NCBI GenBank assembly: GCA_045634385.1
Contig: JAZRAE010000029.1
Span: 5,704 to 69,703, forward strand
DNA length: 64,000 bases
Direction: 5' to 3'
Origin: Eubacteriales bacterium
GTDB lineage: Bacteria > Bacillota > Clostridia > Oscillospirales > CAG-272
Below, in pieces: positions 3,542 to 42,938 of this stretch (within the stretch, counting starts at the first letter, position 1; each line of letters opens with the position of its first letter). The translations under genes and the position numbers were made by a program. The notes under the pieces are model-generated. The model did no database searches. It worked only from the letters and a program-made list of their open reading frames with translations, and was not told where the DNA came from.

Positions 3542-3737
3542 AGTTAAGTGCCTCCAATCTATCTTTATACGTATTGCAAAATCATAATTTAAAAAATAAA
3601 AATACTACGGTATGTTATCATATATTATACAATATATTACAAATATTTTCAAGTGCAAAAGGCAAATATATATTTCTTTTTTGCATAATCGATGTCATTT
3701 TGCACTTAAACCGCATTTTTATTTCATTGATGTTGCA

Positions 3738-3770
3738 TAAAAATGCACCACCCCGTACGGAGTGGTGCAT
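3738..3770 (-). terminator. Rho-independent terminator of the 1152-aa lipoprotein gene
   Basis: Stem atgcaccacccc/ggagtggtgcat with loop gtac. It is followed on the minus strand by TTTTTA. Confidence 0.7.
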
Positions 3771-3829
3771 CTATGGTATTTTAGTTATACAGAGTTTTTA
3801 CTCGGTATGACGTTTTCGTTATTCGAGCC

Positions 3830-6800
3830 TTAAGCTACGGTGATTATGATAGTAACCTCGCCTGCAACTGCCCAAGTACCAAGGCTGAATCTGTAAGATG
3901 TGCCCTCGGTAATCTCGAAGGAGAAGGTTTCAGTCTCACATGCAGATGTATCATTTCCGGTATTTTCACCGTTTTCATTAAGCTCAAAGATATCTCCCCA
4001 AGAATCTGCGGTGGGCCAGGTAAAGGTAATTGTACCTGTCTGGGTTGCAGTGAAGATATAGAAAACTTTGTTAAATGTATCGGAGTTAAAGGTAATCGAC
4101 TCGGGAAGAATGCTAAGAACATAGGGGTCATCCTCTGTGCCGGAACCTGCATTTTCTGCTCCCTCTAACTCATAGCAAATGGTACACACACCGTCAACAT
4201 AGTTGTGGCCGAGTGCCTCTCCGTAGTAAGACCAGCAGTTGTAGCAATATGCGGGATCGGTACAGGTTGCGGGATCACCGGAATGATCAGGGGTGGTGAA
4301 TGTCTCACCGCATTCCATACACTCACCGCTCTCACCACAGCCGAGATACCAGTTGTAGTGACCTTCTGCATAGTATGTATATGATTCTACCTCTTCACAG
4401 ATGGTACATACAGCGTAATATTCGCCGTCCTCTGTACAGGTAGCGTATACATCCTTCTGAACGTCCCAATTGTGAGCGTAATAATAGTCGATTTCCTGCT
4501 CTTCGGTTGCTGTACAGCCTTCGTTGGTACAAGCTACCTTCTTAATACCGTTGGTCTGAGTCAGACAGTTTGCGGGAGTGATAATTTCTTCTTCACCCCA
4601 GAAAGCGTGTGCCTCAGAATCAATAGGAGTCTCTTCTGTGTAGTAGCTATAGCAGTAGATACACTCAAAAACAGCAACGCCGGGAGTTACACAAGTAGCA
4701 TTTACAAGCGCGTGATGATAGAAGGTATTTTCTTCGTACACGTGCTCGCAAACCTCGCCGCAAAGAGTACATACGCCATCTTCATACGCGTGCTCGCATC
4801 CGGACTCGCCATCTGAAGTAAGGGCGTAATAAGAACCGTTGTAATCAGCACTTGTGGGAACACCATTACCGTCGATTACAAGATTGCCTGCCAAAGGATT
4901 AAGCGCAACGCCATCCTCGCTATAAAGAGTAACAATACCGTTAACAATCTCATAGGTTGCTACGATAGAAGAATTTCCTGCCATAGGATGATCATAAATA
5001 AAGGTTACAGTATTGCCTTCAATAATTACGGTGAGAACCTGATTATCCCAATAATCAGTACCAAGGTAAGTGCCTTCAACAATACTTGTGGGCATATCAT
5101 CGTTAGCCTCTTCAACAACATATGTGTTACCGTTATATACAAAGGATGTGGGAACACCGTCAGAGTTAAGAGTTACACCGAGAATGTACTCACTCATTGC
5201 ATTGCCGTTAAGGAAAACGGTCATAACGCCGTCTGCAAATGTGTACTCGTAAACATTACCAGCCATGGTAACGGTGCTTGCATCTGTATCAATAACAAGA
5301 GTGCAGGTGCCGTAACCGGAACCGTAATATGTGCCGCCAACAACTTCGGATGCAGTACCGCCGTTATTGTCACCGCCTTCAACATCACCTGCGGTGTAGG
5401 TGTAGGAAATAAGCCACTCGCCCTTTGTAGTAGCAGCGATGAAGTATACGTATTCTTCACCCTCTGTAAGCTCTACAGTAACTGTTGCGCCAAATTCATT
5501 ATCATAGAAGCCAACCTCAGCGTCTGCCCACTGATTATACGCCTCAGCGGAATACCAACCAAGACCTGCAGGAACGGAGAAGACGTATGTACCTGAACCG
5601 GGAGCGGTGAATGTGTATTCATCAATGTAACCGTATGTATCGGTTGTTTCTACAACAAACTCGTCCTCACCGGCAACTATGTCGCCACTGCCTGATCCAT
5701 CCTCAACTACAATAGTGAAGGAGAAGGTCTTGCCGCCGAGAATGATCTCAACGGGATATGTACCGGCAGCGTAAGCATAAAGAGAAACGTTATTACCGTA
5801 ACCGAAGCCCCAGATGTTTTCATCAGCATTTACTACGAGAGAGTCAATGATGTATGCAACATTAGAATTTTCGGGAGTGCAGTTGCCAAAGTAAAGATCA
5901 ATGAAATCGCCAAGAGTGATGGTAATGGTGTCACCAAGCCCTACAGTACAATCCTCATCAACAAATACGTCAAAGTCTTCGGGAATAAAATCGGAAGCGG
6001 AATACTCTGCAACATAGGTTCTCTCACCCTCAGTCTGAGTTACTACGAAGGTGTATACATCTGCAACTGCAGTATCCTTCAAAGTAATTGTGTTTGTGTT
6101 CTGATCATAGGTGTAGTCCTGATCCCATTCGCTCTCAACAGAGTTGGTATAGCAATCACACTGAATATTAAGACCGGTAAGTGTACCCTTAGCGGAAACG
6201 GTGAAGCTAACTGCCACCTCATAGTAGTCAACGTGGTTACCCTCACCCATACCGGTGTCGGAATTTACATAAAGATAATTGTAAGAGAAGCTGTAAGTTC
6301 CGTTGTCATAGTTGTAGACATACTCGGAAGCTGAGGCACTCTGAGAAAGATCATAAAGAACCTTAAGAGTGTTCTCGGGACCATATGCATCTGCAAGAGT
6401 GGATATAGCGAAATAATAACCACCGATAAGCTCGCTGGTGGGATTATCGTCGATCATGAAGTCACTAAATTCACCTTCATATTCGGTACGGAATATACCC
6501 GATACGGTATCGTCCGCAAGAAGCTCGTACCAAGCCCACTGAGTCTGCTCTCCCTCATACTTGTAATGACCGTCAAAATCAACGCCCTCCTGAAGGCTAT
6601 AATAATGAGCCTTGTAGAAGGATGCTGCATTACCGAGAAGATAATCGATAGTCTGAGTGAATGCAGAAATGCTTTCCTGAGCAACGCTGGTACCAAGATA
6701 GTCGTTTATGATCTTACCACCTGTTACGTTGTTCTTACTTGCAAGAATGATAGGAAGAATAACTTCGATGTCGGTAACATCAGTATCGAATACCTGCTCA

Positions 6801-7288
6801 CCGCAAACGGTACACTTGCCGTAGATATCAACTGCGTGAACGTGTGCTGCGCAAACGTCACAGGAACCATCCTTAGCAGAGTCAATGTGTGCTGCAAGCT
6901 CGCCCTTCTCATCGGTGTGAGAACAGGTAGCGTCCTTCCAGTGGTAGTTTTCGTCAGAGGACCACGTCTCTGTCCATGTGTGAGTGTGACCGATTTCATA
7001 ATCACAAACGTCACACTTGCCGTTTTCGTCCGCATCGCTATGTGCTGCTACGCCGGACTTTTCTGTTGCATGCTCACATGTTGCCGCATGCCAGTGCTCG
7101 GTCGAGTTTGTCGACCATTTGTCACTGAATGTGTGCTCACAAGTCTCATTCTGATCTCCTTGATCCCCCTGAAGATTACCTCCTAAGATCCCCTCAAGAC
7201 CGGGAATAGCCGAAAGTGCATCACAAGAAGTACATACAAGAGCTACGATTGTAACAAGACAAAGGAGCAACAAAAATTTCCTTTTCAT
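3830..7288 (-). CDS. Large Cys/His-rich surface lipoprotein, paralog 2 (1152 aa), function unknown
   Basis: Lipoprotein signal (LLLCLVTIVALVCTSC). Shares the N-terminal CEHTFSDKWS..EHWHA.TCEH / D.D.(D/N)G.CDVC modules and the C-terminal module (GTEDDPYVLSILPESITF...FYIFTATQTGTITFTWP) with the 967-aa protein. It also carries an extra Cys-rich insert (H..W/F...ATCT..G....C..C repeats). Confidence 0.85.
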   Translation of the reverse strand: MKRKFLLLLCLVTIVALVCTSCDALSAIPGLEGILGGNLQGDQGDQNETCEHTFSDKWSTNSTEHWHAATCEHATEKSGVAAHSDADENGKCDVCDYEIGHTHTWTETWSSDENYHWKDATCSHTDEKGELAAHIDSAKDGSCDVCAAHVHAVDIYGKCTVCGEQVFDTDVTDIEVILPIILASKNNVTGGKIINDYLGTSVAQESISAFTQTIDYLLGNAASFYKAHYYSLQEGVDFDGHYKYEGEQTQWAWYELLADDTVSGIFRTEYEGEFSDFMIDDNPTSELIGGYYFAISTLADAYGPENTLKVLYDLSQSASASEYVYNYDNGTYSFSYNYLYVNSDTGMGEGNHVDYYEVAVSFTVSAKGTLTGLNIQCDCYTNSVESEWDQDYTYDQNTNTITLKDTAVADVYTFVVTQTEGERTYVAEYSASDFIPEDFDVFVDEDCTVGLGDTITITLGDFIDLYFGNCTPENSNVAYIIDSLVVNADENIWGFGYGNNVSLYAYAAGTYPVEIILGGKTFSFTIVVEDGSGSGDIVAGEDEFVVETTDTYGYIDEYTFTAPGSGTYVFSVPAGLGWYSAEAYNQWADAEVGFYDNEFGATVTVELTEGEEYVYFIAATTKGEWLISYTYTAGDVEGGDNNGGTASEVVGGTYYGSGYGTCTLVIDTDASTVTMAGNVYEYTFADGVMTVFLNGNAMSEYILGVTLNSDGVPTSFVYNGNTYVVEEANDDMPTSIVEGTYLGTDYWDNQVLTVIIEGNTVTFIYDHPMAGNSSIVATYEIVNGIVTLYSEDGVALNPLAGNLVIDGNGVPTSADYNGSYYALTSDGESGCEHAYEDGVCTLCGEVCEHVYEENTFYHHALVNATCVTPGVAVFECIYCYSYYTEETPIDSEAHAFWGEEEIITPANCLTQTNGIKKVACTNEGCTATEEQEIDYYYAHNWDVQKDVYATCTEDGEYYAVCTICEEVESYTYYAEGHYNWYLGCGESGECMECGETFTTPDHSGDPATCTDPAYCYNCWSYYGEALGHNYVDGVCTICYELEGAENAGSGTEDDPYVLSILPESITFNSDTFNKVFYIFTATQTGTITFTWPTADSWGDIFELNENGENTGNDTSACETETFSFEITEGTSYRFSLGTWAVAGEVTIIITVA

Positions 7289-7503
7289 TGTAAAAGGCCT
7301 CCTTATAAATTTTATTTCAATATTGGTTGAAATATCAAAAATAAATAGTGATGAATAAATATGCGCATTATATCGAATAAATAATCGTTAGTTTATACAA
7401 GCATTATAAACCTAAAGAAAGAAAAATTCAAGTAAAATCAGTATTTTACATTATTTTCGTAAGATCTGTTATTTACTCATCTGCTTGGAAAATAAATCTC
7501 CGT

Positions 7504-9081
7504 TCAATTTGTATAATATCCGCAAGCGAAGAGCCACTGGGAATCCTCATATGCGTCATATCTCGGCAAATGCTGCTCTGCCCAACCATTACCGTCGCTA
7601 AACAATTTTTGGCTAACACAATACTTCTGCAAGAAGTCCTTTAGCTCCTCGGTCACGGGGCATCTGCCCTCTATGGCAATATCGGCATATCCGCGCTGTC
7701 CGATATATCTTCTGTTGATGTGGCGACAGTCCGGCGTACACTTGGTGCAGTTATCCTCAATGGCACAAACGCCTCCGTTGGATGCAGCACACGGACAAGT
7801 ACCCAAGCAGAAGTATGCGCCGACCTTTTCTCCACTTCCCTGCGTCAGTCGGTCAAAGCCCTCAATAAATAGTTTGTAGTTCTCCGTACCGCCCGAAAGT
7901 GTAAGATTCTTATTTCCTGCATACTCGATTTCATTAAAAGCGGCGTCGATAAACTGAGTGGGAATGCTGATATTAGCATAGATAATAGGTCCCCATCCTC
8001 CGTACTCGGCGTACGTCTCCCGGTCGAAGACATGATAATAGCCATCATCGGGATTAAGCTTGAAGTACTGCTGATCAAATACGTTTTTGCCATCGATTTT
8101 TACCGAAGCAATATTATACTTTGAATCCCCATATTTTGACCTGTCGGCTGCAAGATATGAGCTATATCTGTCATACCAATCATTAAATGGGGCACCGTTG
8201 GGAATATACTCGGGATAAACGAAGTCAGAAGTAATCCAATCATAGGAGTATCCGCCCTCATAGGTGATTACAAAGTCAACGTTAGTAGGATAGGTAGCAT
8301 CCTTTCCCTCAAGAAGGATAGCAAAGGTGTAAACGTTACCGATAAATGCCTGATCTATCTCAACCACATGCTTGAAGTTAGTGGTATATCCGCTTGATGC
8401 ACCGCCACCGTCAATACGTTTTTCTCTGACCTTATACGCAAAGCTTCCTGCGTAAATATCAACGAAGGGATTATACATACCTGCGGATACGTCCATAATA
8501 GATTCTATACAATATGTACCGGGCTTTGTAGGCTCAAACTCGTAGAAGATCTCCTGAGCATCCATTGTAACTTTTGCCCTATAGACTCCGGGACCGGAAA
8601 GAGGAATACACTTATAAACATCAGTTCCGTCACCAAAAGTAGGATTAATTGTCATAAGCTCTATAACAACGTTTCTTGAATCATTATCCGCTTTGTAAAT
8701 ATTTGGGTTATATGTGTAGTTTGAAGGAAGGTTAATAAGCGTAACGGAATACTCACCGTCGAGCTCGTAACACTCTGCCTTACCGTCACTCGCGAGAGTA
8801 ACTGTACTATAGCTCTTCCCATCGGTCCATCTGACCTTTACAGCGAGAGAATCATCGGAAACCTCGGGGGGCGTGTACGGTTTTCCGTTAAGCATTACGG
8901 TTGCGATAAACGGTTCACCGCGCTCAACGGTACTGTCATTACCGTTGTTTTCGTTTCCGTTATTCTGATCTTCGGTTTCTTCACCATCAGGATCATCAAC
9001 AGGAGCGTTGTACTCACCACAGCCAAAGATCGAGAAAATGAAGATAAAAATCAAAAGGAGGAAAAGTATTCTGTTTTTCAT
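7504..9081 (-). CDS. Lipoprotein (525 aa), last gene of the MoxR/VWA operon, function unknown
   Basis: Signal plus lipobox (IFIFSIFGC). Has a PPC-like signature (FYEFEPTKPGTYCIES) and a Cys-rich C-terminus ending CPVTEELKDFL...WLFACGYY. Its start overlaps the stop of the upstream VWA gene by 4 nt. Confidence 0.85.
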   Translation of the reverse strand: MKNRILFLLLIFIFIFSIFGCGEYNAPVDDPDGEETEDQNNGNENNGNDSTVERGEPFIATVMLNGKPYTPPEVSDDSLAVKVRWTDGKSYSTVTLASDGKAECYELDGEYSVTLINLPSNYTYNPNIYKADNDSRNVVIELMTINPTFGDGTDVYKCIPLSGPGVYRAKVTMDAQEIFYEFEPTKPGTYCIESIMDVSAGMYNPFVDIYAGSFAYKVREKRIDGGGASSGYTTNFKHVVEIDQAFIGNVYTFAILLEGKDATYPTNVDFVITYEGGYSYDWITSDFVYPEYIPNGAPFNDWYDRYSSYLAADRSKYGDSKYNIASVKIDGKNVFDQQYFKLNPDDGYYHVFDRETYAEYGGWGPIIYANISIPTQFIDAAFNEIEYAGNKNLTLSGGTENYKLFIEGFDRLTQGSGEKVGAYFCLGTCPCAASNGGVCAIEDNCTKCTPDCRHINRRYIGQRGYADIAIEGRCPVTEELKDFLQKYCVSQKLFSDGNGWAEQHLPRYDAYEDSQWLFACGYYTN

Positions 9082-11774
9082 TTTTTTACCTCCTTTGTTT
9101 TTTTCTTAAATAGACTCACAATGTCCGCCCACTTAAGCTTTCTGATAACTGTATCTACGACATAGATAACGGCAGCCACAGCAAGGAAAGGAACTGTGAA
9201 TCGAAGTATATAGGTCGCAATTTTATTTTCGTCGACCTCAAGCTTAATCTCATCGTCATCAAACACATTGCCGTTATTTCTCATAAACGCGTGTATAGGA
9301 GCCGGAGACGAATTCTTAAAGCTGTCATACTCGGGTGAGTATGAAATGGTGTGAACCGTTCTCGACGAATAAGATTTTGTCAGAAGCTCATAGGTAGTAT
9401 CAATAACATACTTGCCCTGCTGTCCTGTTTCAATCTTAAAGAAATATCGATATGAATCAAAGGTGAGTTTCTCTTTTATCTCACTTCCGTCAGGGAAGGT
9501 TACGGTGACTGTAACACGTGCATCGGGGTTAAGCGATGCGGGAATTATCTCAATATGCGAGCTGACACCGTCAAAATCAACGTTCAAGGTATAGGGATAA
9601 TCTATCTTAGTTTCGGGAATATTTGTCTTTGCGACATTCTCAAGGAAGTGCATGCCTTCCCCATCTGTCCAATCGGATACCCAAGCTCCGCCAAGCGTCG
9701 TTGTTAGTGTCGCTACCCTACCGTTTCCATATGACCAATATGCGTAAAGCGGCACTTGAACTACCCTTCCGCTCGGCTTTGTATAATCAACGTCAAGTAC
9801 GGTTTCGGCACTTGCCTTTACTTTAGCAAAAACGTATCCGTATATATCCGGAACGTAAGCCATGCCAAAGAGAACGTCATCGCCGGGCTTTTTAACGTTT
9901 ACCGTTGTTTTACCCGTGATCTCGGCAGCATTTACATCATCTGCAACCTCACCAAGCACAAGGCTCTCGAGATCGCTCGAGCGCTCACAGAAGTAGTAAT
10001 TTCCCTCTCCCGCAAGAGCAATAGCGCGCATGGTGTTTATACCGTCGGTCTCTTTGTTTCCTGTATTCAAGGTAGATACGGTTATGTTGTTGGCACGCAA
10101 AACCTCTGCTTCAGCAAAAGGATCGTCCTCAAGCACTTCACCGCCCTCAAATGACATACCGTCGGAAATGAGCATAACCTGCTTTTCGCTAAAGCTCATA
10201 GGTATCATCAATTCACCTGCCGCTTTGAGAGCCGCGCCGATCATAGTACCTTGAGTAACGTCAAGCCTTGATACCGCGCCAAGAGCCTTTGCAATATTCT
10301 CGGGACTTGCCTCCTGCGGTTGAGCAAGGTGATATACCTCACCGGAGAAATTGATAATTGCGAAGTAATCCGTCTCATCAAGAAGACCGAGCAGATAGGT
10401 TGCGGAAAGCTTTGCCATTACAAAGTAGTCGGCATTTCTGAACTCCATACTGCGCGAGCTGTCTATAACGAGAGTATATAGCTTGGGATCTGCATCATCA
10501 TCGTCAAATTTAACCGGGAGCATATCCTCAAGAGTATCAAGGGTTGAATCATCCTTGTTCTGTATCTGCGTATTTCCCGCAGTGATAAGGCTCTTACCAA
10601 ACACGGATACAACGGTATCGAGCGACTCAATGAATGTATCCGCACTGTTGACCGTTCTAACATCAACACCCGATATGATTATCTCATCGTATTTACAAAG
10701 ATCCTCAACCGTGAAGGGAACGTCAAACGTTGAGGGTTTGGGATTAGGGTTAGAAATAGTCGGTGTAGGATCCTTTGGCTTTACGTAAGCATCAACGATC
10801 GCATCATCTCCCCATATGTCTTTAACATATTCGATATCTAAAGCGGACGAGGTGACAAGAAGAATCGATACGGTCTCGCTGACAGATTGAGTCAAGGAGA
10901 TGCTGTTGTTGTAATCCGAACTATCATCTTCGGTGTGTACGGAAACCGTATAATCATTTTCACCCGCCTCAGTAGTGTCGAGATCGAGGTTAACAATATT
11001 AAAGCCTACGGTAAGTTCAGCGGTTTTTTCAGTATATTTCTCACCATTCTTCATCAAGGTGAGAATCACATTTGTTTTTTGTGTGGATTCAAGAAGCACG
11101 TCAAGAGTGGTCTCTTTTCCAACGTAGGTAGAGGAATTAAAATCAACCGAAGAAATCTGTACTTCGGGCTTGCCTTCCTCAAGATTTGAGTCAACGTATA
11201 CGGTATCAACGTACACGTCACGCGCCTTTAGATCCTCAACTACTCTGACAAGCTCTTTATTTTCATCAGGATCGGTAGACATACCGTCCGTAATGATTAC
11301 GATACGCTTTATTGAACTTTCTCCAAATAAAGAGTCAGCATAACGCAACGCAGATGCAATATTTGTTGCACTGCCGTTAACCTTATTATTCTTCACAGTG
11401 CTTATGCGTTCTCCAAGCTGGGTGTGAAGCCTGTAGTTTTTACCAAAGGTTATAACGCCCATTTCCGAATTTCTCGGAAGCTCATCCTGAACCTCTGCAA
11501 TATACTCGTCGACAAGGTCGAGCTTATCATTCATAGAGTAGGAAACATCGGCAAGAACGTAAAGCTCGGTCTCGGTTATTACGGTAACGTTAGACATACC
11601 TGCCGCGGCAAGTACAACGAGAACGACAATAACCGCGTGAAGCACTAATGCGACGGTTGATGCACGTGATTTATTCTCCTTGCGAATAGCTATGAAGTAA
11701 GGCACGAGAACAAGTGCCAGCATAGGGATAAGAAGGATAAGCAGTAATGGATTATCGAAGTTGATATTTATCAT
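9078..11774 (-). CDS. BatA-N-terminal domain / double von Willebrand factor A domain membrane protein (898 aa)
   Basis: N-terminal hydrophobic PLLLILLIPMLALVLVPYF segment typical of the aerotolerance-regulator N-terminal domain. Two VWA cores with MIDAS DxSxS motifs (DVSYSM, DSSRSM) and ITDG/ISDG strands. C-terminal TM segment. Confidence 0.85.
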   Translation of the reverse strand: MININFDNPLLLILLIPMLALVLVPYFIAIRKENKSRASTVALVLHAVIVVLVVLAAAGMSNVTVITETELYVLADVSYSMNDKLDLVDEYIAEVQDELPRNSEMGVITFGKNYRLHTQLGERISTVKNNKVNGSATNIASALRYADSLFGESSIKRIVIITDGMSTDPDENKELVRVVEDLKARDVYVDTVYVDSNLEEGKPEVQISSVDFNSSTYVGKETTLDVLLESTQKTNVILTLMKNGEKYTEKTAELTVGFNIVNLDLDTTEAGENDYTVSVHTEDDSSDYNNSISLTQSVSETVSILLVTSSALDIEYVKDIWGDDAIVDAYVKPKDPTPTISNPNPKPSTFDVPFTVEDLCKYDEIIISGVDVRTVNSADTFIESLDTVVSVFGKSLITAGNTQIQNKDDSTLDTLEDMLPVKFDDDDADPKLYTLVIDSSRSMEFRNADYFVMAKLSATYLLGLLDETDYFAIINFSGEVYHLAQPQEASPENIAKALGAVSRLDVTQGTMIGAALKAAGELMIPMSFSEKQVMLISDGMSFEGGEVLEDDPFAEAEVLRANNITVSTLNTGNKETDGINTMRAIALAGEGNYYFCERSSDLESLVLGEVADDVNAAEITGKTTVNVKKPGDDVLFGMAYVPDIYGYVFAKVKASAETVLDVDYTKPSGRVVQVPLYAYWSYGNGRVATLTTTLGGAWVSDWTDGEGMHFLENVAKTNIPETKIDYPYTLNVDFDGVSSHIEIIPASLNPDARVTVTVTFPDGSEIKEKLTFDSYRYFFKIETGQQGKYVIDTTYELLTKSYSSRTVHTISYSPEYDSFKNSSPAPIHAFMRNNGNVFDDDEIKLEVDENKIATYILRFTVPFLAVAAVIYVVDTVIRKLKWADIVSLFKKKTKEVKK

Positions 11775-13635
11775 AACAATACACCATCCATTCTGCCGTG
11801 AATAATAACGCCGCGAGAATAAACAGAAGCGTCATAGGATCATATATTCCATCGCTTCCTTCCTCCTTTGCCTCACCTTGTATGCTGATAGAATCAGCCG
11901 TGGTTTCGGTATGACGCTCCTCTTTAGGCACAGAGGAGTAAATATAATACGGAGGTCTTTCAGCACCGGAGATATCAACGGTTATTTTGTATTCTCCTAC
12001 TTCTGAAAGTTCAAACTCACTGACTGCACCCGTAGTATCGGTATAAATGACCTCTCCCTTAGGTGTCTCAACGCGGATGCTGTTACATCCGGATATTACG
12101 TTAATTTGTGCGGTATCACCGCAGTAGTAATCTGTTTTCTCAATAACCTCGGGGAAGGAGTAATCAAGAAGATTTCCAAGCATTGCGAGGTAATCGAGCG
12201 AAAGTGCTATATCAGAATCGTGAAGGCTGAACGAGAATACAACCTCACGGTTTCCAAAATCATTGACACCCGTAAAGACAACGGGATTGCCCTTATAACT
12301 GTAAAGCGTGGTAAAGTCGGCGTAAAGACCGTATTTGATATATTTGGCAATATAGATGTCGTTGCCTATCATACCTTCGGTCAGCTTGCGCACTATGCTG
12401 GCGGTGGAAGATGTGAGCGTGATCTTATCCGCGCTCTCAAGAATAACCTCACCCTGAACGCTGAAACCGCTACCTTCCACATTTGCATTTGTACCGATAA
12501 ACCATACCGAGCCATCCTTAGGAAGTGACGATGGATTATAAGAGTCAAATATATAGAGAGAGTAACCACTTATCGTTTTATCCTCATTCAATAAGCGCAC
12601 TTCTTCTTTTTTGTAATCCTCTGTTGACATTACTGCAATATTGGCTGTGCTAACGGATTCAATTGCACTCTTAATAAGGAAAGGGGTGTCGCTGATAAGA
12701 ATTGCATTGTACGCATTCTCGCTCTCTACGTCATATACGGTCACACTGTTGTCATCGGAGTAAGCATCTTCACTCTTGATCACAACACTTAGCGAATAAA
12801 ATTCGGAAATCTCAACCGTAAAGTTAAAGGCTGTACGGGTATTGTTAAGAGCCTGCACCTTTGTGGAAGACGCAGATTCTGAAACGTTGTCAAAATATAG
12901 TTCAACGTCAACGAGTCTGTCCGCACCGTAGGAGACAACGTAACCGCTTACGGTAACGGTATTTTTGCCCGTCTTGATATATGTAACATCCTCAACGGAA
13001 ACATTATTTTCGCTACGCGAAACGTTGATTATCTCTACGTTTTCCGCAGTATCGTATTCGGTATCGGTAACGAGATAAACTTTGGTAGACGGATTTTCGT
13101 CAAAATACCCCTGCGCCTCACCTATTGCTTTGGTATAATCAATTGTACCGCCAAAGCATTCGAGTGCAGAAAGTCTGTCAGATATGCGATCCTTTTTGTC
13201 TGTCTTCTCGAGAACCACCTCTGTTGTACCGCCGACAAGAATCAAGGTATAAGTGCTTCCGTCCTTTGATTCATCAACGATATCAAGGATCTCGCCTTTA
13301 GCAAGATCAAAACGGCTGACACCGTTCTCTTCCATATTCATACTTGCGGAACCATCGAGAATAAAGCAATATTCATGCGCAGCACCGGGCAGAGTAACAA
13401 TGGGATGAGCAACTGCCATAGAAAGCGTGAATACGAGAAGAAGTTGAAGTATAAGGCTGATTATACCGGTTATCCTTGAGAGTGGGTTTCTTCTCTTCAA
13501 AAACCTCTCACTAAGTCGCCAAAGATAAGTTGAAGCAATCGTCTGCTCCGTATATCTGTTTTTGATAAGGTATACGATAATAAGGATCGGGATACCTATG
13601 AGGCCGAGAAGACCTATGGGATAAAGAAACGTCAT
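11752..13635 (-). CDS. BatA-N-terminal domain / VWA domain membrane protein (627 aa)
   Basis: Starts MTFLYPIGLLGLIGIPILIIVYLIK (BatA-type N-terminus). Has a VWA MIDAS motif (LDGSASM) and a C-terminal TM. Overlaps both neighbouring genes. Confidence 0.8.
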   Translation of the reverse strand: MTFLYPIGLLGLIGIPILIIVYLIKNRYTEQTIASTYLWRLSERFLKRRNPLSRITGIISLILQLLLVFTLSMAVAHPIVTLPGAAHEYCFILDGSASMNMEENGVSRFDLAKGEILDIVDESKDGSTYTLILVGGTTEVVLEKTDKKDRISDRLSALECFGGTIDYTKAIGEAQGYFDENPSTKVYLVTDTEYDTAENVEIINVSRSENNVSVEDVTYIKTGKNTVTVSGYVVSYGADRLVDVELYFDNVSESASSTKVQALNNTRTAFNFTVEISEFYSLSVVIKSEDAYSDDNSVTVYDVESENAYNAILISDTPFLIKSAIESVSTANIAVMSTEDYKKEEVRLLNEDKTISGYSLYIFDSYNPSSLPKDGSVWFIGTNANVEGSGFSVQGEVILESADKITLTSSTASIVRKLTEGMIGNDIYIAKYIKYGLYADFTTLYSYKGNPVVFTGVNDFGNREVVFSFSLHDSDIALSLDYLAMLGNLLDYSFPEVIEKTDYYCGDTAQINVISGCNSIRVETPKGEVIYTDTTGAVSEFELSEVGEYKITVDISGAERPPYYIYSSVPKEERHTETTADSISIQGEAKEEGSDGIYDPMTLLFILAALLFTAEWMVYCYDKYQLR

Positions 13636-14522
13636 TTCACTACCCCCTGCTCCTCGAGCTTACCGAAGAGTATCTCGCCAATATCGTCCTCCGCGGATGC
13701 GAGAAGATAATTCGCGCCGCGTGAGAAGCAATAGTTACGTATCCTGTCGGTAGCATAAGCGAGTGCCGCCTTGTACGCCTTTAGGATATCTCTGTCGATA
13801 TTCTTTTTATAAGTTTTTTCAAAATTCTCTGAGTCAAATAAGTGCATTTTACCCGTAATCTGAGGAGTAAGCTCCTCACCGGATAAGATCTGTATACAAA
13901 ATACGTCGCGCTTCTTGTTGACGAGGTGATCTATAGCGGTCTCAAAGTCGTTATCTGTCAAGAAGTCGGAAATTATGACCGACATACCGTCACCCATACC
14001 AACAACGGACGGAAGTATCGCCTCACTTATGTAGCTGTCACCGTCGAATTCTATTTCATTGAATTTGCCCACTCTGTTAAAGAAGGACTCCTTACCCACC
14101 GTCGGTGGAATAAGCTCTGTCACTTCCCTATCCTTGATAACGTAAACGGACACTCTGTCCATCTCGTTGACTGCCATATACGTAAGAGCTGCCGCAAGGC
14201 GAACTGCCTGCTCTGCCTTTTCTCCCTTTCCGTAATCCATAGAACGGCTGGCATCGATATATATTCTCGTGTGCATCTGTCTTTCGTCAAGAAACAGCTT
14301 AAGATAAAGCTGATCAAAACGAGCAAAAGAATTCCAATCGATCTTGGTTATATCGTCACCCGGCATATAATCACGGTAATCAGCAAATTCGCAAGAAGAA
14401 CCAAACGAGCCGTATTTGCTCTGTTTATTGCCGCCAAACATTCCGGCAACGTTGTTCTTGAGAAGTGTCTCAAGGATATCAAGCCTTGAGAGAAACTCTT
14501 CGTTGATTACATATTTTTTCAT
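13632..14522 (-). CDS. DUF58 domain protein (MoxR partner)
   Basis: Motif DYRDYMPGDDITKIDWNSFAR followed by a VWA-like IDASRSM. Located immediately downstream of the MoxR ATPase, which is the canonical arrangement. Confidence 0.9.
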   Translation of the reverse strand: MKKYVINEEFLSRLDILETLLKNNVAGMFGGNKQSKYGSFGSSCEFADYRDYMPGDDITKIDWNSFARFDQLYLKLFLDERQMHTRIYIDASRSMDYGKGEKAEQAVRLAAALTYMAVNEMDRVSVYVIKDREVTELIPPTVGKESFFNRVGKFNEIEFDGDSYISEAILPSVVGMGDGMSVIISDFLTDNDFETAIDHLVNKKRDVFCIQILSGEELTPQITGKMHLFDSENFEKTYKKNIDRDILKAYKAALAYATDRIRNYCFSRGANYLLASAEDDIGEILFGKLEEQGVVK

Positions 14523-15506
14523 TTAGGGCTTTTTAGTTTCCTTTACAAGCATTTCAATTACGTCATCCGTGTTAAGCTTATCGTTGATCGCGGCATAGTT
14601 TACCTTAACTCTATGGCGAAGAACGGGGCCTGCCAAAGCATCGATATCAGCGTAGGATACGTTGTAATTACCGTGCATAAGCGCACGCACCTTAGCAGCG
14701 GTGATAAGGGCCTGAGCAGCACGGGGAGATGCACCATACTTTACGTACTTGACGGCTGTAGCAGACGCACCGTCGACCTCGGGGTGAGTCGCGGAAACAA
14801 GGTTTACCGCATACTCAAGCACATCGTCAATGATCGGAACGCTTGCCGCAAGCTTACGCATGCCGAGGATGGTCTCGCCGTCCATAACAGTCTCTGCGGT
14901 CTCAAGCATAGTTGCCTGTGTCATGGTGACGATGTTTTTAAGCTCCTCTGTGCCGGGGAACTTCATTATGAGCTTAAACATAAATCTGTCCATCTGAGCT
15001 TCGGGAAGCGGATATGTACCATCCTGCTCAATGGGGTTCTCAGTAGCCATTACAAAGAAGGGCTCTGCTATAGCGTGAGTTGCTCTGCCGATAGTTACCT
15101 TGTGCTCCTGCATTACCTCAAGCATCGCAGACTGAGTCTTGGGAGTTGCACGGTTGATCTCGTCCGCAAGTACGAGGTTGGCAAATATAGGACCTCTGCG
15201 GAAGACGGTGCGCATATTTCCGTCCTTATCCTTTTGAATGATGTTCGTACCCGTCACGTCGGAGGGCATGAGGTCAGGGGTGAACTGAATTCTTGAGAAA
15301 GGAAGTCCAAGAGTACGGCTAAGGGAACGAACAAGTCTGGTCTTACCTACTCCGGGAACACCCTCAAGAAGCACGTTACCGCCCGAAATGATGGCAATGA
15401 TTATATTTTCGATAACCTCTTCGTTACCGACGACGTCTTTTGCAAGCTCCGCCTTAATGCTCGCAATTCTCGCACTGAAGCTCTTTGCGTTTTCCATATT
15501 TTCCAT
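14523..15506 (-). CDS. MoxR-family AAA+ ATPase
   Basis: Walker A LLEGVPGVGKT, Walker B LADEINRA, and the conserved RIQFTPDLMPSDVTG segment. The 327-aa length is typical of the AAA_3/MoxR family. Confidence 0.95.
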   Translation of the reverse strand: MENMENAKSFSARIASIKAELAKDVVGNEEVIENIIIAIISGGNVLLEGVPGVGKTRLVRSLSRTLGLPFSRIQFTPDLMPSDVTGTNIIQKDKDGNMRTVFRRGPIFANLVLADEINRATPKTQSAMLEVMQEHKVTIGRATHAIAEPFFVMATENPIEQDGTYPLPEAQMDRFMFKLIMKFPGTEELKNIVTMTQATMLETAETVMDGETILGMRKLAASVPIIDDVLEYAVNLVSATHPEVDGASATAVKYVKYGASPRAAQALITAAKVRALMHGNYNVSYADIDALAGPVLRHRVKVNYAAINDKLNTDDVIEMLVKETKKP

Positions 15507-15520
15507 TTATGTGTCCTCAC

Positions 15521-16936
15521 TTAATTATTTTCATTTTCAGCCGTACCGCCGAAGAGCTTACCGAAGTAATCTTCCGCCGCATCGGAAATTTTGTCCGACG
15601 TCTTGCCGTCGGTGATCTGTTCGTTTGCCTTGGCGAAATACTCGTTAAGGAGCTCACCGTAAGGCCTATATGTATTGGTATCGGGGTCATAGACCAAGTC
15701 ATTGCTGCCGTAGATAACGTCACCCGTGCCAAGTCCGCCCGAGCCTATGGTATTTTCAGGATCGTCAACCGGAGGATCTACGAAGGGATTATTTTCTGTC
15801 GATGGATCGCGAAGATCGATGTCCGTATCCGGATCAGCCGCTACAAGATCGTCCTCGGTTATTCCAAAAAGACTGCAAAGCTTATTGATAACGACGTTTA
15901 TCGTAGATCTGTTGACGTTCTGCACGATAATTTCACTTGAGATTTTTTTGCCAGCATCAGCGAACTCATCAGCAATATTTCCCGAGCCGTCCTTCAGCTC
16001 CGCACTCAATCCCTTGAAAATGACGTATATGGGATCATCCGAGCGAACACCCGAGGAGGCGAGATATGAATTGAACTCATCCGCAACAAAATTGGCATCA
16101 TCGTAGCTCACATTATCAAGAGACTCACCAAGTGTTTCAAGTGCGTTTTTCGTACCGGAGCCGGAAAGCTCTCCGAGAGCTTTAGAAAGGCTGAGGATAT
16201 TCTCATTTGAGCTTTGAGCGAAGGTAACCGAAAGTGCCTCTGCAGAATTCGCCTTTGCCAATGACTTATTGATTTCAATAACCGTTGTTATGGCCTTTGC
16301 CTTCATTTCGGAAAGATAACTCGACTCTTCAACAAAATCCAGCAAACTGTTAAGTTCATCGAGAGTTTCACTTTTAAGGTTTTCATTTGTATATGAATTT
16401 TCCACAATCGTGATAATCTCTGCGAGAGCGGTTATTATCCATTGCTTATCAAACTCATCTATTGGAGTCTCACCGCTGCCCGCCTTTACCGGAAGTATCC
16501 AAGCTCCAAAAAAGCAGCCAAGTGAAATAAAGAAGACAAGAAGTCCTGCAATAAGAGGCTTTGACTTAATCATTTTCTTCTGTTGGTTGCCAAGACGCTC
16601 GTCGGCATCTTCGCGCTGTAATGCAGCAAATCCGCCCTCGTCATGACGAAGCTCTATCATCGTGCTGACTTTTTCATTAAGCGAATAGACCGAATCTAAC
16701 CGTTTGGCAAGCCTCCTTTCGGATGGCATAAGAATAAAGTACAATATAAACGAGATCGGTATCGCTACACCGCCCAATAAGAAGTAGTAAAGAAGTTCAG
16801 CCTCTTTTCCCGAAAGTTTAGACACAAGCATCATCACCGCAAGAGCAACGACGGATGAGCCTATTCCAAGCAAAAGCGAGGCGAACACAGCTTGACGTCT
16901 CACCCTACTTTTAAATTTATAAAAGCTATTAAACAT
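15521..16936 (-). CDS. Polytopic membrane protein, first gene of the MoxR/VWA operon (about 471 aa from the ATG at 16936)
   Basis: The ORF track extends to 17032. The ATG at 16936 (MFNSFYKF...) has an AAAGGAAG RBS and lies downstream of the predicted promoter. Has N-terminal TM helices, one central TM, then a helical and D/P-rich C-terminal part. Confidence 0.7.
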   Translation of the reverse strand: MFNSFYKFKSRVRRQAVFASLLLGIGSSVVALAVMMLVSKLSGKEAELLYYFLLGGVAIPISFILYFILMPSERRLAKRLDSVYSLNEKVSTMIELRHDEGGFAALQREDADERLGNQQKKMIKSKPLIAGLLVFFISLGCFFGAWILPVKAGSGETPIDEFDKQWIITALAEIITIVENSYTNENLKSETLDELNSLLDFVEESSYLSEMKAKAITTVIEINKSLAKANSAEALSVTFAQSSNENILSLSKALGELSGSGTKNALETLGESLDNVSYDDANFVADEFNSYLASSGVRSDDPIYVIFKGLSAELKDGSGNIADEFADAGKKISSEIIVQNVNRSTINVVINKLCSLFGITEDDLVAADPDTDIDLRDPSTENNPFVDPPVDDPENTIGSGGLGTGDVIYGSNDLVYDPDTNTYRPYGELLNEYFAKANEQITDGKTSDKISDAAEDYFGKLFGGTAENENN

Positions 16937-16982
16937 TTTCTTCCTTTCATTTTCGCGCATAAAAATAAAAAATTTACACCTC

Positions 16983-17011
16983 ATTGTATCATACATACCC
17001 ATTTTTGTCAA
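16983..17011 (-). promoter_or_regulatory. Sigma-A type promoter of the MoxR/VWA operon
   Basis: Minus-strand TTGACA (17011..17006), 17-nt spacer, TACAAT (16988..16983). Confidence 0.55.
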
Positions 17012-17128
17012 GTAAAACGGGAGTTTTAACAAAAGAAGTGCAAATTTTTAGAGATTATGCCGTATTTTGTTTATTTTAAAGGTAAATAATTTGTATTTTA
17101 AAACGAAGAGATGTTAACAAGGTTTTTC

Positions 17129-17686
17129 TCATAGTTCCAAAACGAGTAAGGCTCTGAGATTATCCGCCGCCATTTCTGCGCTTTCATATCCACCGTCTAC
17201 GAGAATAACAGCACCGTAGACCATAGAGAGAATCTTGAATACAATAGCAGATGGATCATCGATTCCCTTCTGTTCGGCATATTGTTCTGCGGCAACCGAA
17301 ATGGGACGGTCAAACTCACGCAGCGGTCCCCGTCCACCCTTATCAAGTGTCGAGGTTGCGGATATCACCGTACGGAAATTTCCGTTCGCAATCCAAAATC
17401 GCAAGCCCGCAACAGCAAGCTCGGTAAGTAGCGCTTTTGAATCCCGGGCAAAAATCTCAAAGATCTGTCCCGAAAGTAATGTCCATCCGTCTACAACATA
17501 CTTTATAACCGCGCCAATCAACTCGTCCTTATCCTTGAAATGGCGATAAGGCGCAGCGCAGGATACACCTGCGTCCTGTGCAACACGGCGAAGTGAAAAA
17601 TCGCTGACTCCATGAGTCTCAAGCTCTTTAAGCCCCGAAAAGAGAAGTCTTGATCTGACGTTGTCCGGAGTAAAGTTATCTTCCAT
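17129..17686 (-). CDS. TetR/AcrR-family transcriptional regulator
   Basis: N-terminal HTH (FSLRRVAQDAGVSCAAPYRHFKDKDELI). The start was chosen at MEDNFTPDN, which has an AAAGGA RBS; the ORF track start at 17752 lacks one. Confidence 0.85.
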   Translation of the reverse strand: MEDNFTPDNVRSRLLFSGLKELETHGVSDFSLRRVAQDAGVSCAAPYRHFKDKDELIGAVIKYVVDGWTLLSGQIFEIFARDSKALLTELAVAGLRFWIANGNFRTVISATSTLDKGGRGPLREFDRPISVAAEQYAEQKGIDDPSAIVFKILSMVYGAVILVDGGYESAEMAADNLRALLVLEL

Positions 17687-20129: not shown

Positions 20130-20193
20130 TCCTTAATGAACCTTGGATATCATAATCCAATACATCTAAATTCTAACGAATACGGAGTTTAAT

Positions 20194-21222: not shown

Positions 21223-21255
21223 TTATTTACAAATAATGTATTATAGAGGATATAT

Positions 21256-22347: not shown

Positions 22348-22348
22348 T

Positions 22349-24018: not shown

Positions 24019-24087
24019 CTTCGATTTTTGACAATAATTATTTACATATAAAGCATATTCGCCCACTTTAAGACAAGGAAAACAACA

Positions 24088-26155: not shown

Positions 26156-26215
26156 TACCGAAAAATGTAATAAAACAAAGAATTTTACACATGATAAACC
26201 AAAAGGACGGTAAAT

Positions 26216-31075: not shown

Positions 31076-31089
31076 TAAGGAGATTTACA

Positions 31090-31788: not shown

Positions 31789-31800
31789 ATCAAATAATTT

Positions 31801-31834
31801 ACGCCCCGAGGACGATGCCTCGGGGCGTTTTTTA
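31801..31834 (+). terminator. Strong Rho-independent terminator (possibly serving both convergent units)
   Basis: 11-bp GC-rich stem acgccccgagg/cctcggggcgt followed by TTTTTT. Confidence 0.85.
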
Positions 31835-31854
31835 TGCTCTATAGATTGATAATC

Positions 31855-42923: not shown

Positions 42924-42938
42924 GGAGAAGGAGAAAAA

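Follow-up and report, generated by a model that had tools for sequence, protein, structure and literature searches.

What do MoxR-type ATPase operons do, and on which proteins do they act? To our knowledge, the job of this operon class has gone unexplained for 25 years. The locus described here lies in a 64,000-nt stretch of Eubacteriales DNA (the window), and its lipoproteins are candidate clients for such an operon. We propose, tentatively and with a probability of roughly 45%, that its six-gene cassette has a Bat/MRP-type MoxR core and forms, in gut Firmicutes, a fixed module spanning the envelope, in which the cytoplasmic ATPase powers a MIDAS complex that faces outward and serves surface lipoproteins.

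Architecture of the cassette

Six co-directional ORFs occupy the minus strand from 16936 to 7504, in the order g1–MoxR–DUF58–BatA–VWA2–g6 (Table 1), with successive junctions of +14, 0, −4, −23, and −4 nt. The promoter in front of them matches the consensus at 11 of 12 positions and is the top-scoring promoter-like site within 17.7 kb. An earlier note had described six tightly packed or overlapping minus-strand genes behind one promoter and had identified them as a Bat-like MoxR–DUF58–VWA–VWA operon; the junctions and the promoter match bear out the first statement, and Pfam domains the second. Because the promoter sits 47 nt 5′ of the ATG at 16936, g1 was taken to be 471 aa long, as it is in the NCBI gene call (P0121). 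An alternative 503-aa ORF starting at TTG was rejected as the first protein on the basis of the promoter position. A TetR-family gene next to the cassette was found in close relatives only (4/57 loci plus L001 and L002).

Table 1. Features of the locus (positions in the window)
Feature	Positions	Strand	Description
TetR-family regulator	17129–17686	−	Directly upstream of cassette, same strand
Sigma-70-type promoter	16983–17011	−	TTGACA-17 nt (extended TG)-TACAAT
g1 membrane protein	15521–16936	−	471 aa; family without a name
MoxR AAA+ ATPase	14523–15506	−	AAA_3/MRP type, predicted cytoplasmic; Pfam AAA_3 (4.5e-61) and AAA_lid_2
DUF58 protein	13632–14522	−	VWA-like; Pfam DUF58 (1.7e-32)
BatA-type protein	11752–13635	−	627 aa; Pfam BatA_N (3.6e-11), VWA_2 (1e-12)
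VWA2	9078–11774	−	898 aa; two VWA domains (Pfam)
g6 lipoprotein	7504–9081	−	525 aa; signal peptide and lipobox Cys21
Spacer, g6 to 1152-aa gene	7289–7503	−	215 nt, AT-rich
Giant lipoprotein	3830–7288	−	1152 aa; N-terminal Cys/His and DxDxDG repeats
Intrinsic terminator	3739–3769	−	13-bp GC-rich stem, then U5
967-aa lipoprotein	638–3541	−	Paralogue of 1152-aa lipoprotein, 42% identity
Extracytoplasmic thiol-redox module	27482–34234		Four genes, not adjoining cassette in the window
Redox gene 1	at 27482		AhpC/TSA lipoprotein (Trx-lipoprotein), 1197 aa; CSNC
Redox gene 2			Big_1 lipoprotein, 232 aa
Redox gene 3			NapH-like Fer4_5/[4Fe-4S] membrane protein, 519 aa; outward Trx domain, WCPGC
Redox gene 4			6-TM protein, 275 aa

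The ATPase and VWA core

At the level of sequence, the ATPase motifs and all four MIDAS motifs of the cassette are intact. Walker A and Walker B of MoxR, whose nearest structure is 2R44 (E = 2e-69), are unchanged in 70/70 orthologues, and D90, S92, and S94 of the DUF58 DxSxS motif are retained in 72/72. The BatA MIDAS residues D94, S/T96, S98, and D191 are unchanged in all 75 orthologues, as are both DxSxS motifs and the downstream Asp residues of VWA2 in all 79. Some VWA2 orthologues carry a GATase1_like domain inserted between the VWA domains.

Topology rules and a mapped Borrelia BatA homologue suggest that MoxR and DUF58 are cytoplasmic, the latter because the topology analysis found no TM helix in it. 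By the same evidence, BatA and VWA2 would each have membrane helices at both termini and carry their MIDAS domains on the outer side of the membrane, and g1 would expose one conserved face to the cytoplasm and another to the outside. BatA is predicted to begin with a double-TM BatA_N region, to continue into a 519-aa acidic ectodomain that contains an outward MIDAS-bearing VWA domain, and to end in a TM anchor. For VWA2, the predicted layout is a double-TM N terminus, a 799-aa acidic ectodomain holding two VWA domains, each with a MIDAS, and a last TM helix followed by a C-terminal tail rich in K and R. The Borrelia burgdorferi homologue BB0173 (bb0170–bb0176), which adjoins a MoxR gene, is BatA-like, with three real TM helices and an experimentally periplasmic VWA domain (PMC5700661), which supports the topology that positive-inside analysis gives for the cassette.

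A secondary Pfam match to bpMoxR (2.5e-16) and the known MoxR–vWA ternary conflict systems (PMC7159879) raise the idea of a conflict or anti-phage system. This reading, already disfavored, is very improbable: AAA_3 is the best-matching model by a wide margin, no PADLOC system proteins were matched except for generic weak AAA matches, and the VWA proteins are predicted to face outward and lack effector domains. Moreover, the cassette is single-copy, in a stable chromosomal context, and free of mobile-element signs.

The flanking partners g1 and g6

Neither Pfam nor NCBIfam contains a family that g1 matches above the cut-off, and no sequence match was obtained in the PDB. Positive-inside analysis gives three TM helices and an acidic 320-aa ectodomain, so the expectation of a leading 471-aa polytopic protein with a long helical ectodomain held. 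The likely arrangement is N-in, TM1, TM2, a cytoplasmic loop of ~52 aa, TM3, and the helical acidic ectodomain. Conservation is seen in the predicted loop (PSxxRLAKRLD..EKV.TM.EF..LQREDA) and in the motif that terminates the ectodomain (GGLGTGDxIYGSNDLxxDPxTNxYxxYG).

At the other end, g6 is translationally coupled to VWA2, its start codon overlapping the VWA2 stop by 4 nt. Lipobox Cys21 is followed by an acidic linker, a prealbumin-like β-sandwich (residues 55–146), a jelly roll (147–282), and a C-terminal domain (283–525) with a 7-Cys knot. C520 is invariant (79/79) and survives even where the knot has been deleted. Searches of Pfam and NCBIfam returned no family for g6, and the confidently modeled C-terminal domain had no fold match in the PDB. 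Foldseek matched residues 150–276, within the jelly roll, to domains of the collagen-binding, PPC, and CPE C-terminal types (E ~1e-4 to 1e-3, TMt 0.47–0.60), which, with the signal peptide and lipobox Cys, agrees with the earlier description of a PPC-like lipoprotein.

The earlier note had further claimed that g6 shares modules with three giant lipoproteins of the window. For the two downstream giants at 638–7288 this did not stand, as the best BLASTP values were not significant (E = 0.014 and 0.059) and HMMs of the g6 subdomains gave E ≥ 0.08. For the Trx-lipoprotein it did in part: the two proteins have in common a signal peptide and an N-terminal β-sandwich (HMM E = 3.6e-6) and a short motif, PVTEEL...WL..C.YY. 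A post hoc regular expression for this motif had three matches in the window versus none in 200 shuffles, and hhalign gave E = 2e-5 over 15 columns only. The notion of a single lipoprotein family with common modules is largely wrong; g6 is a family of its own, and across loci the downstream giants, variable in number, fall into at least three unrelated families.

Conservation and the downstream lipoproteins

The census covered 80 species-level genomes holding a g6 homologue, all of them MAGs of uncultured gut bacteria in the classes Clostridia and Bacilli, with counts restricted to loci whose contig reached far enough. In these loci the six cassette genes invariably occur together and in the same order, with a large lipoprotein gene next: upstream of g6 we found VWA2 in 73/73, BatA in 69/69, DUF58 in 66/66, MoxR in 65/65, and g1 in 61/61 species loci, and downstream the lipoprotein in 67/67. 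The linkage thus extends beyond the source genome, contrary to the outcome named in the earlier note as its refutation. Synteny holds while identity drops as low as 32% (g6) and 22% (g1), and starting from distant g1 homologues recovered this cassette again. VWA2-to-g6 spacing is mainly −4 to +15 nt. The next ORF after g6 has a lipobox in 67/69 cases, and 58 of the 67 lipoproteins belong to the family of the window's 1152- and 967-aa proteins. Conservation falls from MoxR (74%) through DUF58 (63%), BatA/VWA2 (45%), and g6 (37%) to g1 (27%), with the giants at 28 to 34%, as would fit an engine that stays constant while its surface parts diversify.

In the window, no terminator was found in the spacer between g6 and the 1152-aa gene, which itself has no Pfam match. 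The spacer does hold promoter-like sites (7431–7403 and 7338–7309) and an AAGGAGG RBS, so that transcription could run on from the cassette, and the 1152-aa gene may in addition be served by a promoter of its own. The terminator beyond this gene (ΔG −23.7 kcal/mol, z −6.8) likely ends the transcription unit begun at 17011. As judged from this strong terminator and from its own promoter (3652–3624), the 967-aa gene, which also has its own terminator (539–505), is a transcription unit apart from the cassette.

The cassette might have no clients, being a self-contained Bat-like envelope module, general or stress-related, near which large lipoprotein genes cluster through shared regulation or surface-gene islands. 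The unrelated families and variable number of the lipoproteins fit this reading, as do the median gap after g6 of 99 nt, the promoter-like sites, and the independently transcribed 967-aa gene. We nevertheless consider it improbable, since the adjacency is kept in all 67 loci across Clostridia and Bacilli although all other flanking genes turn over, one gap in four spans 30 nt or less, and no terminator separates g6 from the 1152-aa gene.

Alternatively, MoxR and DUF58 could be a pre-export cytoplasmic chaperone that holds or remodels giant lipoprotein precursors ahead of translocation, as MoxR1 does for RipA (PMC12067865), leaving the VWA proteins and g1 only to dock at the translocon. The cytoplasmic placement of MoxR and DUF58 in the topology analysis and the unusual size (644–2155 aa) and acidity of the candidate clients are in line with this. 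The signal peptides, however, are ordinary Sec-type lipoprotein signals, and the strict conservation of ~1,300 ectodomain residues carrying MIDAS domains and of extracellular g6 is left unexplained, which makes this reading quite doubtful.

Links to thiol-redox proteins

A different role is suggested by the thiol-redox module, whose CxxC motifs are intact. Its homologues abut the cassette in nine loci (L003, L007, L033, L071, L076, L078, L084, L085, and L087), and a Fer4_5-Trx, 6-TM, or AhpC/TSA homologue lies directly upstream of g1 in 7/57 species loci (~12%). In Bacilli-type loci these genes are co-directional with g1 at a gap of 11 to 12 nt; the same applies to L003 and L007. The complex could have an extracytoplasmic redox or “aerotolerance” role in strict anaerobes, of the kind originally suggested for the Bacteroides Bat proteins, partnering an outward thioredoxin pathway (the NapH-like Fe-S–Trx membrane protein and the AhpC/TSA lipoprotein) and keeping surface thiols or Cys/His metal sites reduced or loaded, both in g6 and in Cys/His-rich lipoproteins. 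Invariant C520, the C..Y.Y-containing motif common to g6 and the Trx-lipoprotein, and the Cys/His-rich giants point the same way, as do Tang's hypothesis of reducing-power export by Bat proteins (quoted in PMC3557215) and the oxidant sensitivity of Riemerella batA mutants (PMC11834572). On the other hand, the adjacency is confined to a minority of loci and the distance in the window is 10 to 17 kb; domain searches revealed no redox-active motif or cofactor site in MoxR, DUF58, the VWA proteins, or g1; Bacilli-type downstream lipoproteins are Cys/His-poor; and an oxidative-stress role of Bat was not reproduced in Leptospira (PMC3557215). We regard a redox role as unlikely but worth serious consideration, and it is compatible with a MIDAS platform serving clients.

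Proposed mechanism

In MoxR–VWA pairs, the two proteins work as chaperone and co-chaperone (PMC7159879), and two precedents, MoxR1–RipA and the bifidobacterial PFNA cluster (PMC12067865), connect a MoxR operon with a neighboring exported or surface protein. If the cassette does serve surface lipoproteins, a MoxR hexamer, with DUF58 as a cytoplasmic VWA-type cofactor, would act on g1 through its cytoplasmic loop and on the VWA proteins through their short loops and tails, and this action would assemble or switch an outward-facing MIDAS platform. MIDAS sites bind extended acidic peptides. The platform would bind acidic stretches in g6 and in the neighboring giants, which are themselves very acidic, and might thereby assemble, hold, or maintain them on the cell surface, with g6 as a constant extracellular subunit or adaptor and the giants as variable clients. 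We know of no mechanism that would let an AAA+ ATPase in the cytoplasm act on ectodomains. The diversity of downstream families argues against recognition of one specific fold. The promoter-like sites of the 1152-aa gene and the separate transcription of its paralogue were counted against the client mechanism, as was the absence of a phenotype in Leptospira bat mutants (PMC3557215).

Comparison with known systems

The cassette is a Bat/MRP-type MoxR operon that lacks BatC, BatD, and BatE and has new fixed partners. The BatI (aerotolerance) operon of Bacteroides fragilis and the MRP MoxR operons of Bacteroidota, Spirochaetes, and Francisella have the same order, MoxR (AAA_3), DUF58, BatA (BatA_N double-TM plus VWA), and a second membrane VWA protein, with intact MIDAS and VWA domains predicted outside the cytoplasmic membrane. 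The cassette differs in having neither the TPR/SH3 proteins (BatC and BatE) nor BatD, in the 3-TM g1 in front and lipoprotein g6 behind, two fixed partners that described Bat operons do not have, in VWA proteins that are two to three times larger and have C-terminal anchors, and in its monoderm hosts and ever-present giant lipoprotein gene. The Borrelia cluster belongs to a diderm spirochaete and has TPR/BatD-type partners but neither g1 nor g6, and adjacent giant lipoproteins are not reported.

Mycobacterial moxR1–Rv1480 (DUF58)–Rv1481 (VWA membrane protein) beside ripAB shares the MoxR–DUF58–membrane VWA core, with genes for exported envelope proteins conserved next to it, and MoxR1 is reported to be necessary for RipA export (PMC12067865). 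It has, however, one small VWA protein, a Tat-exported NlpC/P60 hydrolase as client, and no g6-like lipoprotein. The Bifidobacterium PFNA cluster (pkb2-fn3-MoxR-DUF58-tgm) likewise connects MoxR and DUF58, in a Gram-positive gut bacterium, with a membrane protein and with a large surface protein made of β-sandwich repeats, but its membrane partner is transglutaminase-like rather than BatA/VWA, its surface protein is FN3-type, and it includes a Ser/Thr kinase. RavA–ViaA, CoxD–CoxE, NorQ–NorD, and CbbQ–CbbO also pair an AAA+ MoxR protein with a MIDAS-bearing VWA partner, the working model being ATP-driven remodeling of a dedicated client. There, the client is a defined enzyme that, like the VWA partner, resides in the cytoplasm, whereas in the cassette three of four MIDAS domains are predicted to be extracytoplasmic, with lipoproteins as candidate clients.

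Organization of the cassette

The cassette comprises six genes in the order g1–MoxR–DUF58–BatA–VWA2–g6, where g1 encodes a membrane protein and g6 a 525-aa lipoprotein; its location and that of the neighboring features are listed in the table. The top promoter-like site within 17.7 kb, TTGACA-17(TG)-TACAAT, lies 47 nt upstream of the g1 ATG at 16936 and downstream of the TTG that opens a 503-aa ORF. This ATG is preceded by a AAAGGAAG ribosome-binding site. The 503-aa version of g1 was rejected because its TTG is upstream of the promoter. Since the promoter falls between the TTG and the ATG, we take g1 to be 471 aa long, which bears out the length proposed in the earlier note and agrees with the public gene call (P0121).

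No terminator was found between g6 and the gene for the 1152-aa lipoprotein; the 215-nt, AT-rich spacer contains promoter-like sites and a strong ribosome-binding site. The 967-aa paralogue that follows has a promoter and a terminator of its own, and Rfam detected no RNA families across the whole window. The gene immediately preceding the cassette promoter, in the same orientation, encodes a TetR-family regulator. Only close relatives retain it (homologous loci L001/L002, L010–L012, and L014 in other genomes), so that it is probably a lineage-specific regulator. The same upstream context, with the aromatic amino-acid biosynthesis genes, is seen in L001.

Features of the cassette and its surroundings
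Feature	Position	Strand	Description
967-aa lipoprotein	638–3541	−	Giant lipoprotein downstream of g6
Intrinsic terminator	3769–3739	−	Strong, with a U5 tail (dG −23.7 kcal/mol, z −6.8); follows the 1152-aa gene; absent from the consensus terminator scan's list
1152-aa lipoprotein	3830–7288	−	Giant lipoprotein downstream of g6
Cassette	16936–7504	−	Filled by six ORFs of the same direction; junctions +14, 0, −4, −23, −4 nt
Promoter-like site	17011–16983		TTGACA-17(TG)-TACAAT
TetR-family regulator	17129–17686	−	
Aromatic amino-acid biosynthesis run	17843–27253	+	Aminotransferase, chorismate mutase/prephenate dehydratase, EPSP synthase, prephenate dehydrogenase, DAHP synthase
Redox module	27482–34234		Four-gene extracytoplasmic thiol-redox set
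Redox gene, Trx-lipoprotein	27482		1197-aa AhpC/TSA lipoprotein, CSNC
Redox gene, Big_1 lipoprotein	31090		232-aa Big_1/CarboxypepD_reg lipoprotein
Redox gene, Fe-S fusion			NapH-like Fer4_5 + 2x[4Fe-4S] membrane protein fused to outward Trx domain (WCPGC)
Redox gene, 6-TM protein			275 aa, no family
Large surface proteins	34659–45950	+	2754-aa secreted protein, then 1003-aa SBP_bac_5 lipoprotein

The gene order is conserved across species

Six neighborhoods were entered via g6 or via remote g1 homologues with as little as 25% g1 identity; each reads g1–MoxR–DUF58–BatA–VWA2–g6, followed by a large protein without a Pfam family, and their outer flanks vary. A g6 profile scan using one genome per species gave 148 relatives; the best 80 loci, which were analyzed, are all in uncultured animal-gut MAGs. 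Carriers include Eubacteriales, Oscillospiraceae, Christensenellaceae, and Ca. Scatosoma among the Clostridia, and Erysipelotrichaceae, Anaeroplasma, and Coprobacillus among the Bacilli.

Counted over the loci whose contig had room for the gene in question, VWA2 is present upstream of g6 in 73/73, BatA in 69/69, DUF58 (directly downstream of moxR) in 66/66, MoxR in 65/65, and g1 in 61/61, and wherever there was room, the order is constant. The gene set is thus fixed, with g6 translationally coupled to VWA2 (spacing mostly −4 to +15 nt). The next gene after g6 encodes a member of the 1152/967-aa lipoprotein family in 58 of 67 loci and another large lipoprotein (834–1367 aa) in the other nine; a lipobox was found in 67 of the 69 next ORFs. 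Between g6 and this invariant lipoprotein gene, the median gap is 99 nt, and one-fourth of the loci have a gap of 30 nt or less. The link between the MoxR–VWA genes and the lipoproteins, which the earlier note had suggested from one genome, is therefore conserved outside it, with the upstream order kept in 61/61 to 73/73 loci and a large lipoprotein next in 67/67. Median identity to the window proteins is 74% for MoxR, 63% for DUF58, 45% for BatA and VWA2, 37% for g6, 28 to 34% for the giant lipoproteins, and 27% for g1.

Domains, motifs, and predicted topology of the MoxR–VWA core

The second gene encodes a MoxR of the AAA_3 (MRP) type (Pfam AAA_3, 4.5e-61), the nearest PDB chain and sole close match being 2R44 (2e-69). 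The product of the third gene, which directly abuts moxR with a 0-nt gap, matches DUF58 (1.7e-32), and that of the fourth combines BatA_N (PF07584; 3.6e-11, above the cut-off) with VWA_2. The 898-aa VWA2 contains two VWA domains (residues 69–196 and 435–605) and received no Pfam call for BatA_N. An NCBIfam scan of the cassette proteins gave nothing specific beyond Pfam, and sequence searches of the PDB with DUF58 and VWA2 returned nothing useful. The best 120 VWA2 homologues listed were all orthologues with at least 46% identity.

Hydropathy and the positive-inside rule predict no transmembrane (TM) helix in MoxR and DUF58, which would place both in the cytoplasm. BatA (627 aa) and VWA2, the latter with three TM helices, share a predicted layout consisting of a short outside N-terminus, TM1, a K/R-rich cytoplasmic loop, TM2, an acidic ectodomain (519 aa in BatA, 799 aa in VWA2), and, toward the C-terminus, a further TM helix and a basic tail. 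We infer these topologies by sequence rules. One precedent comes from experiment: the BatA-type VWA domain of Borrelia BB0173 has been mapped as outward (PMC5700661), in agreement with the BatA orientation derived here.

Motif conservation was scored over 70 to 79 orthologues from different species. Walker A (GxxGxGKT), Walker B (DE), and the downstream motifs of MoxR are invariant in 70/70 orthologues, and the MIDAS motif DxSxS is invariant in DUF58, BatA, and both VWA domains of VWA2; the downstream Asp is likewise invariant in the three membrane VWA domains. This motif set therefore suggests an ATPase that looks active, a single cytoplasmic MIDAS-like site, and three MIDAS sites predicted to be extracellular. 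A MoxR–vWA ternary system functioning in conflict or anti-phage defense is disfavored, as there is no PADLOC system match and there are no effector domains.

Two families without a Pfam or NCBIfam match: g1 and g6

The g1 protein is predicted, by the same hydropathy and charge rules, to have an inside N-terminus, two TM helices separated from a third by a 52-aa cytoplasmic loop (residues 71–122), and a 320-aa acidic ectodomain. Its 114 homologues diverge rapidly (median identity 27%), the best-kept parts being the cytoplasmic loop (..RLAKRLD..EKV.TM.EF..LQREDA) and an extracellular C-terminal stretch (GGLGTGDxIYGSNDLxxDPxTNxYxxYG). Nothing above the cut-off was found in Pfam, NCBIfam, or PADLOC, including a family-wide scan of 34 members at E ≤ 1, and the g1 profile gave nothing useful against PDB sequences. 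Sub-threshold matches to Pfam LPG_synthase_TM occur in 20 of the 34 members (residues ~17–148, best E 2e-6, alignment A2) and probably reflect TM-helix composition; the three-helix bundle of g1 may be distantly related to LPG_synthase_TM.

For g6, there are 385 homologues in a 90%-clustered collection and 764 clusters at 50% identity (E ≤ 1e-3), of which the best 150 are all 349 to 719 aa long. None carries a functional name, the source labels being “hypothetical protein” only. Pfam, NCBIfam, and PADLOC gave nothing above the cut-off, including for 31 members scanned at E ≤ 1, and a profile search of PDB sequences was equally uninformative. Lipobox Cys21 is kept in 78 of 79 g6 orthologues (79 species) and a lipobox regular expression matches 72 of 80 g6 proteins; with a signal peptide, a lipobox, and Cys at +1, g6 and the downstream giants are predicted lipoproteins.

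The AlphaFold model of g6 (pLDDT 78.6) comprises the lipoprotein signal, an acidic linker, two β domains, and a C-terminal domain. The first β domain forms a prealbumin-like sandwich and the second (residues 147–282; pLDDT 84–93) a jelly roll. For the latter, Foldseek returned 1nqd, 3jqw, 5sv5, and the C-terminal domains of CPE (E between about 1e-4 and 1e-3, TMt 0.47–0.60), which corresponds to the β jelly-roll fold of the ColG/ColH CBD and PPC domains. The description of g6 as “PPC-like” in the earlier note thus holds at the level of the fold but not of the sequence: a scan of 31 members at E ≤ 1 gave no match to Pfam PPC, and g6 has no peptidase domain (Pfam, NCBIfam) to which a PPC domain could form the secreted-peptidase C-terminus. 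The C-terminal 243 residues, modeled alone, gave a pLDDT of 85.2 and a pTM of 0.85; the best Foldseek match to the PDB had an E of 1.7, with none at E ≤ 1e-3. A 7-Cys knot (residues 425–452) is present in ~69 to 70 of 79 species and block-deleted in the remainder, whereas C520, H350, E386, N401, T477, E479, D496, Q515, W516, and other residues are invariant across all 79.

A Bacilli-type cassette was observed in L072, L073, L076, L078, L081, and L085 (about 4800–15400, locus coordinates). Its g6 lacks the 7-Cys knot, and the next gene encodes a Big_3 lipoprotein of 834 to 906 aa, followed by a further lipoprotein of 311 to 345 aa that consists only of the two N-terminal β domains of g6.

Shared modules among the surface proteins

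The 1152- and 967-aa lipoproteins are paralogues (42% identity, 2e-163). It had been proposed that g6 shares modules with these two giants and with the Trx-lipoprotein, and only the latter relationship was recovered. BLASTP and HMMs of the g6 subdomains showed no significant similarity between g6 and either giant, whereas the g6 signal peptide and sandwich match the N-terminus of the Trx-lipoprotein (E 3.6e-6); the sandwich also matches the 232-aa Big_1 lipoprotein (E 8e-7). The pattern VT.EL...WL..C.YY occurs once in g6, twice in the Trx-lipoprotein, and again in the independent L007 homologue, compared with none in 200 shuffles, and hhalign backs just its first 15 columns (E 2e-5, probability 77%). 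As the pattern was set post hoc, we regard it as a short motif in common rather than a proven domain.

The N-terminal ~150 residues of both giants consist of tandem ~50-residue Cys/His-rich repeats ending in DxDxDG-x-C-D-x-C, present in one to six or more copies in homologues (e.g., the 1068-aa protein of L004). These repeats match no Pfam family and resemble modules that bind metal (Zn or Ca). Very large surface proteins are unusually frequent in the window; the 2754-aa secreted protein is unrelated to the lipoproteins by BLAST.

A recurrent redox module

Within the redox module, the joining of Fe-S clusters with an outward Trx domain in one protein suggests a route, other than CcdA/DsbD, for exporting electrons from the cell. 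Homologues of the redox genes lie immediately upstream of g1 in at least 7 of 57 species loci, a lower bound because only ~2 kb beyond g1 is visible there. They are co-directional with g1 in Bacilli-type loci (11–12 nt gap) and divergent in three Clostridia loci; redox homologues adjoin g1 in L003 and L007 too. The link to the cassette is recurrent, not universal.

These observations bear on the main rival explanation, the old Bat hypothesis, according to which such a cassette supplies extracytoplasmic reducing power (PMC3557215; PMC11834572). The redox neighbors of g1 and the invariant cysteine of g6 lend it some support, and it is compatible with the MIDAS-platform model described below.

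A working model

In the most likely working model, MoxR and DUF58 would form a cytoplasmic motor whose action, relayed by g1 and by short cytoplasmic segments of the VWA proteins, would reach a MIDAS platform facing outward. The platform in turn would bind g6 as well as the giant lipoproteins, which are very acidic. The model draws on general knowledge of MoxR–VWA pairs and of MIDAS–peptide binding (PMC7159879), and on MoxR operons elsewhere that are tied to adjacent exported proteins (PMC12067865).

A more specific version is an “inside-out” surface machine of Gram-positive gut anaerobes. Here, a motor signal passing through g1 as a two-faced adaptor would switch the three extracellular MIDAS domains, which would then load, hold, or release the giant, diversifying lipoproteins. 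The C-terminal domain of g6 matches no known fold and has an invariant free cysteine; g6 would be a new thiol-dependent enzyme or adaptor, to which a dedicated outward Fe-S/thioredoxin path would deliver electrons in some lineages. We give all these steps jointly roughly one chance in four. If true, this reading would define, for the first time, a class of clients of Bat/MRP-type MoxR operons.

Significance and comparison with known systems

MRP/Bat-type MoxR–DUF58–VWA operons are widespread and tied to stress tolerance and virulence; to our knowledge, neither substrates nor a mechanism have been described for them since 1999. In this cassette, the extracellular partner g6 is fixed and a giant lipoprotein, itself exchangeable, is always adjacent. 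This yields concrete candidate clients and raises the topological puzzle of how an ATPase on the inside acts on MIDAS domains on the outside. In addition, g1 and g6 represent two sizeable protein families without a Pfam or NCBIfam match, one g6 domain combining a confident model with no PDB match, and the carriers are Clostridia and Bacilli of the animal gut that are abundant but uncultured, with a surface biology that has been little explored. We found no description of the cassette in the searchable literature.

CoxD/E, NorQ/D, and RavA/ViaA pair the ATPase with a cytoplasmic VWA partner and a nearby enzyme client. In the cassette, the TM-less DUF58 carries a MIDAS-like motif. The cassette differs from these systems in that lipoproteins are the only constant of its conserved neighborhood and there is no enzyme client. 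With Bat/MRP-type operons, it shares an AAA_3 MoxR with intact Walker A and B motifs, a DUF58 gene directly after moxR, a BatA with an N-terminal double-TM (aerotolerance-regulator) domain and a VWA domain with MIDAS, and a second, BatB-like membrane VWA protein. It differs from the Bat operon in lacking BatC, BatD, and BatE (no TPR, SH3, or BatD match in the six cassette proteins or in 34 g1 and 31 g6 family members at E ≤ 1) and in having g1, g6, and candidate lipoprotein clients. With four Bat features present and BatC, BatD, and BatE absent, the cassette is therefore best described as a Bat/MRP-type variant rather than a true Bat operon.
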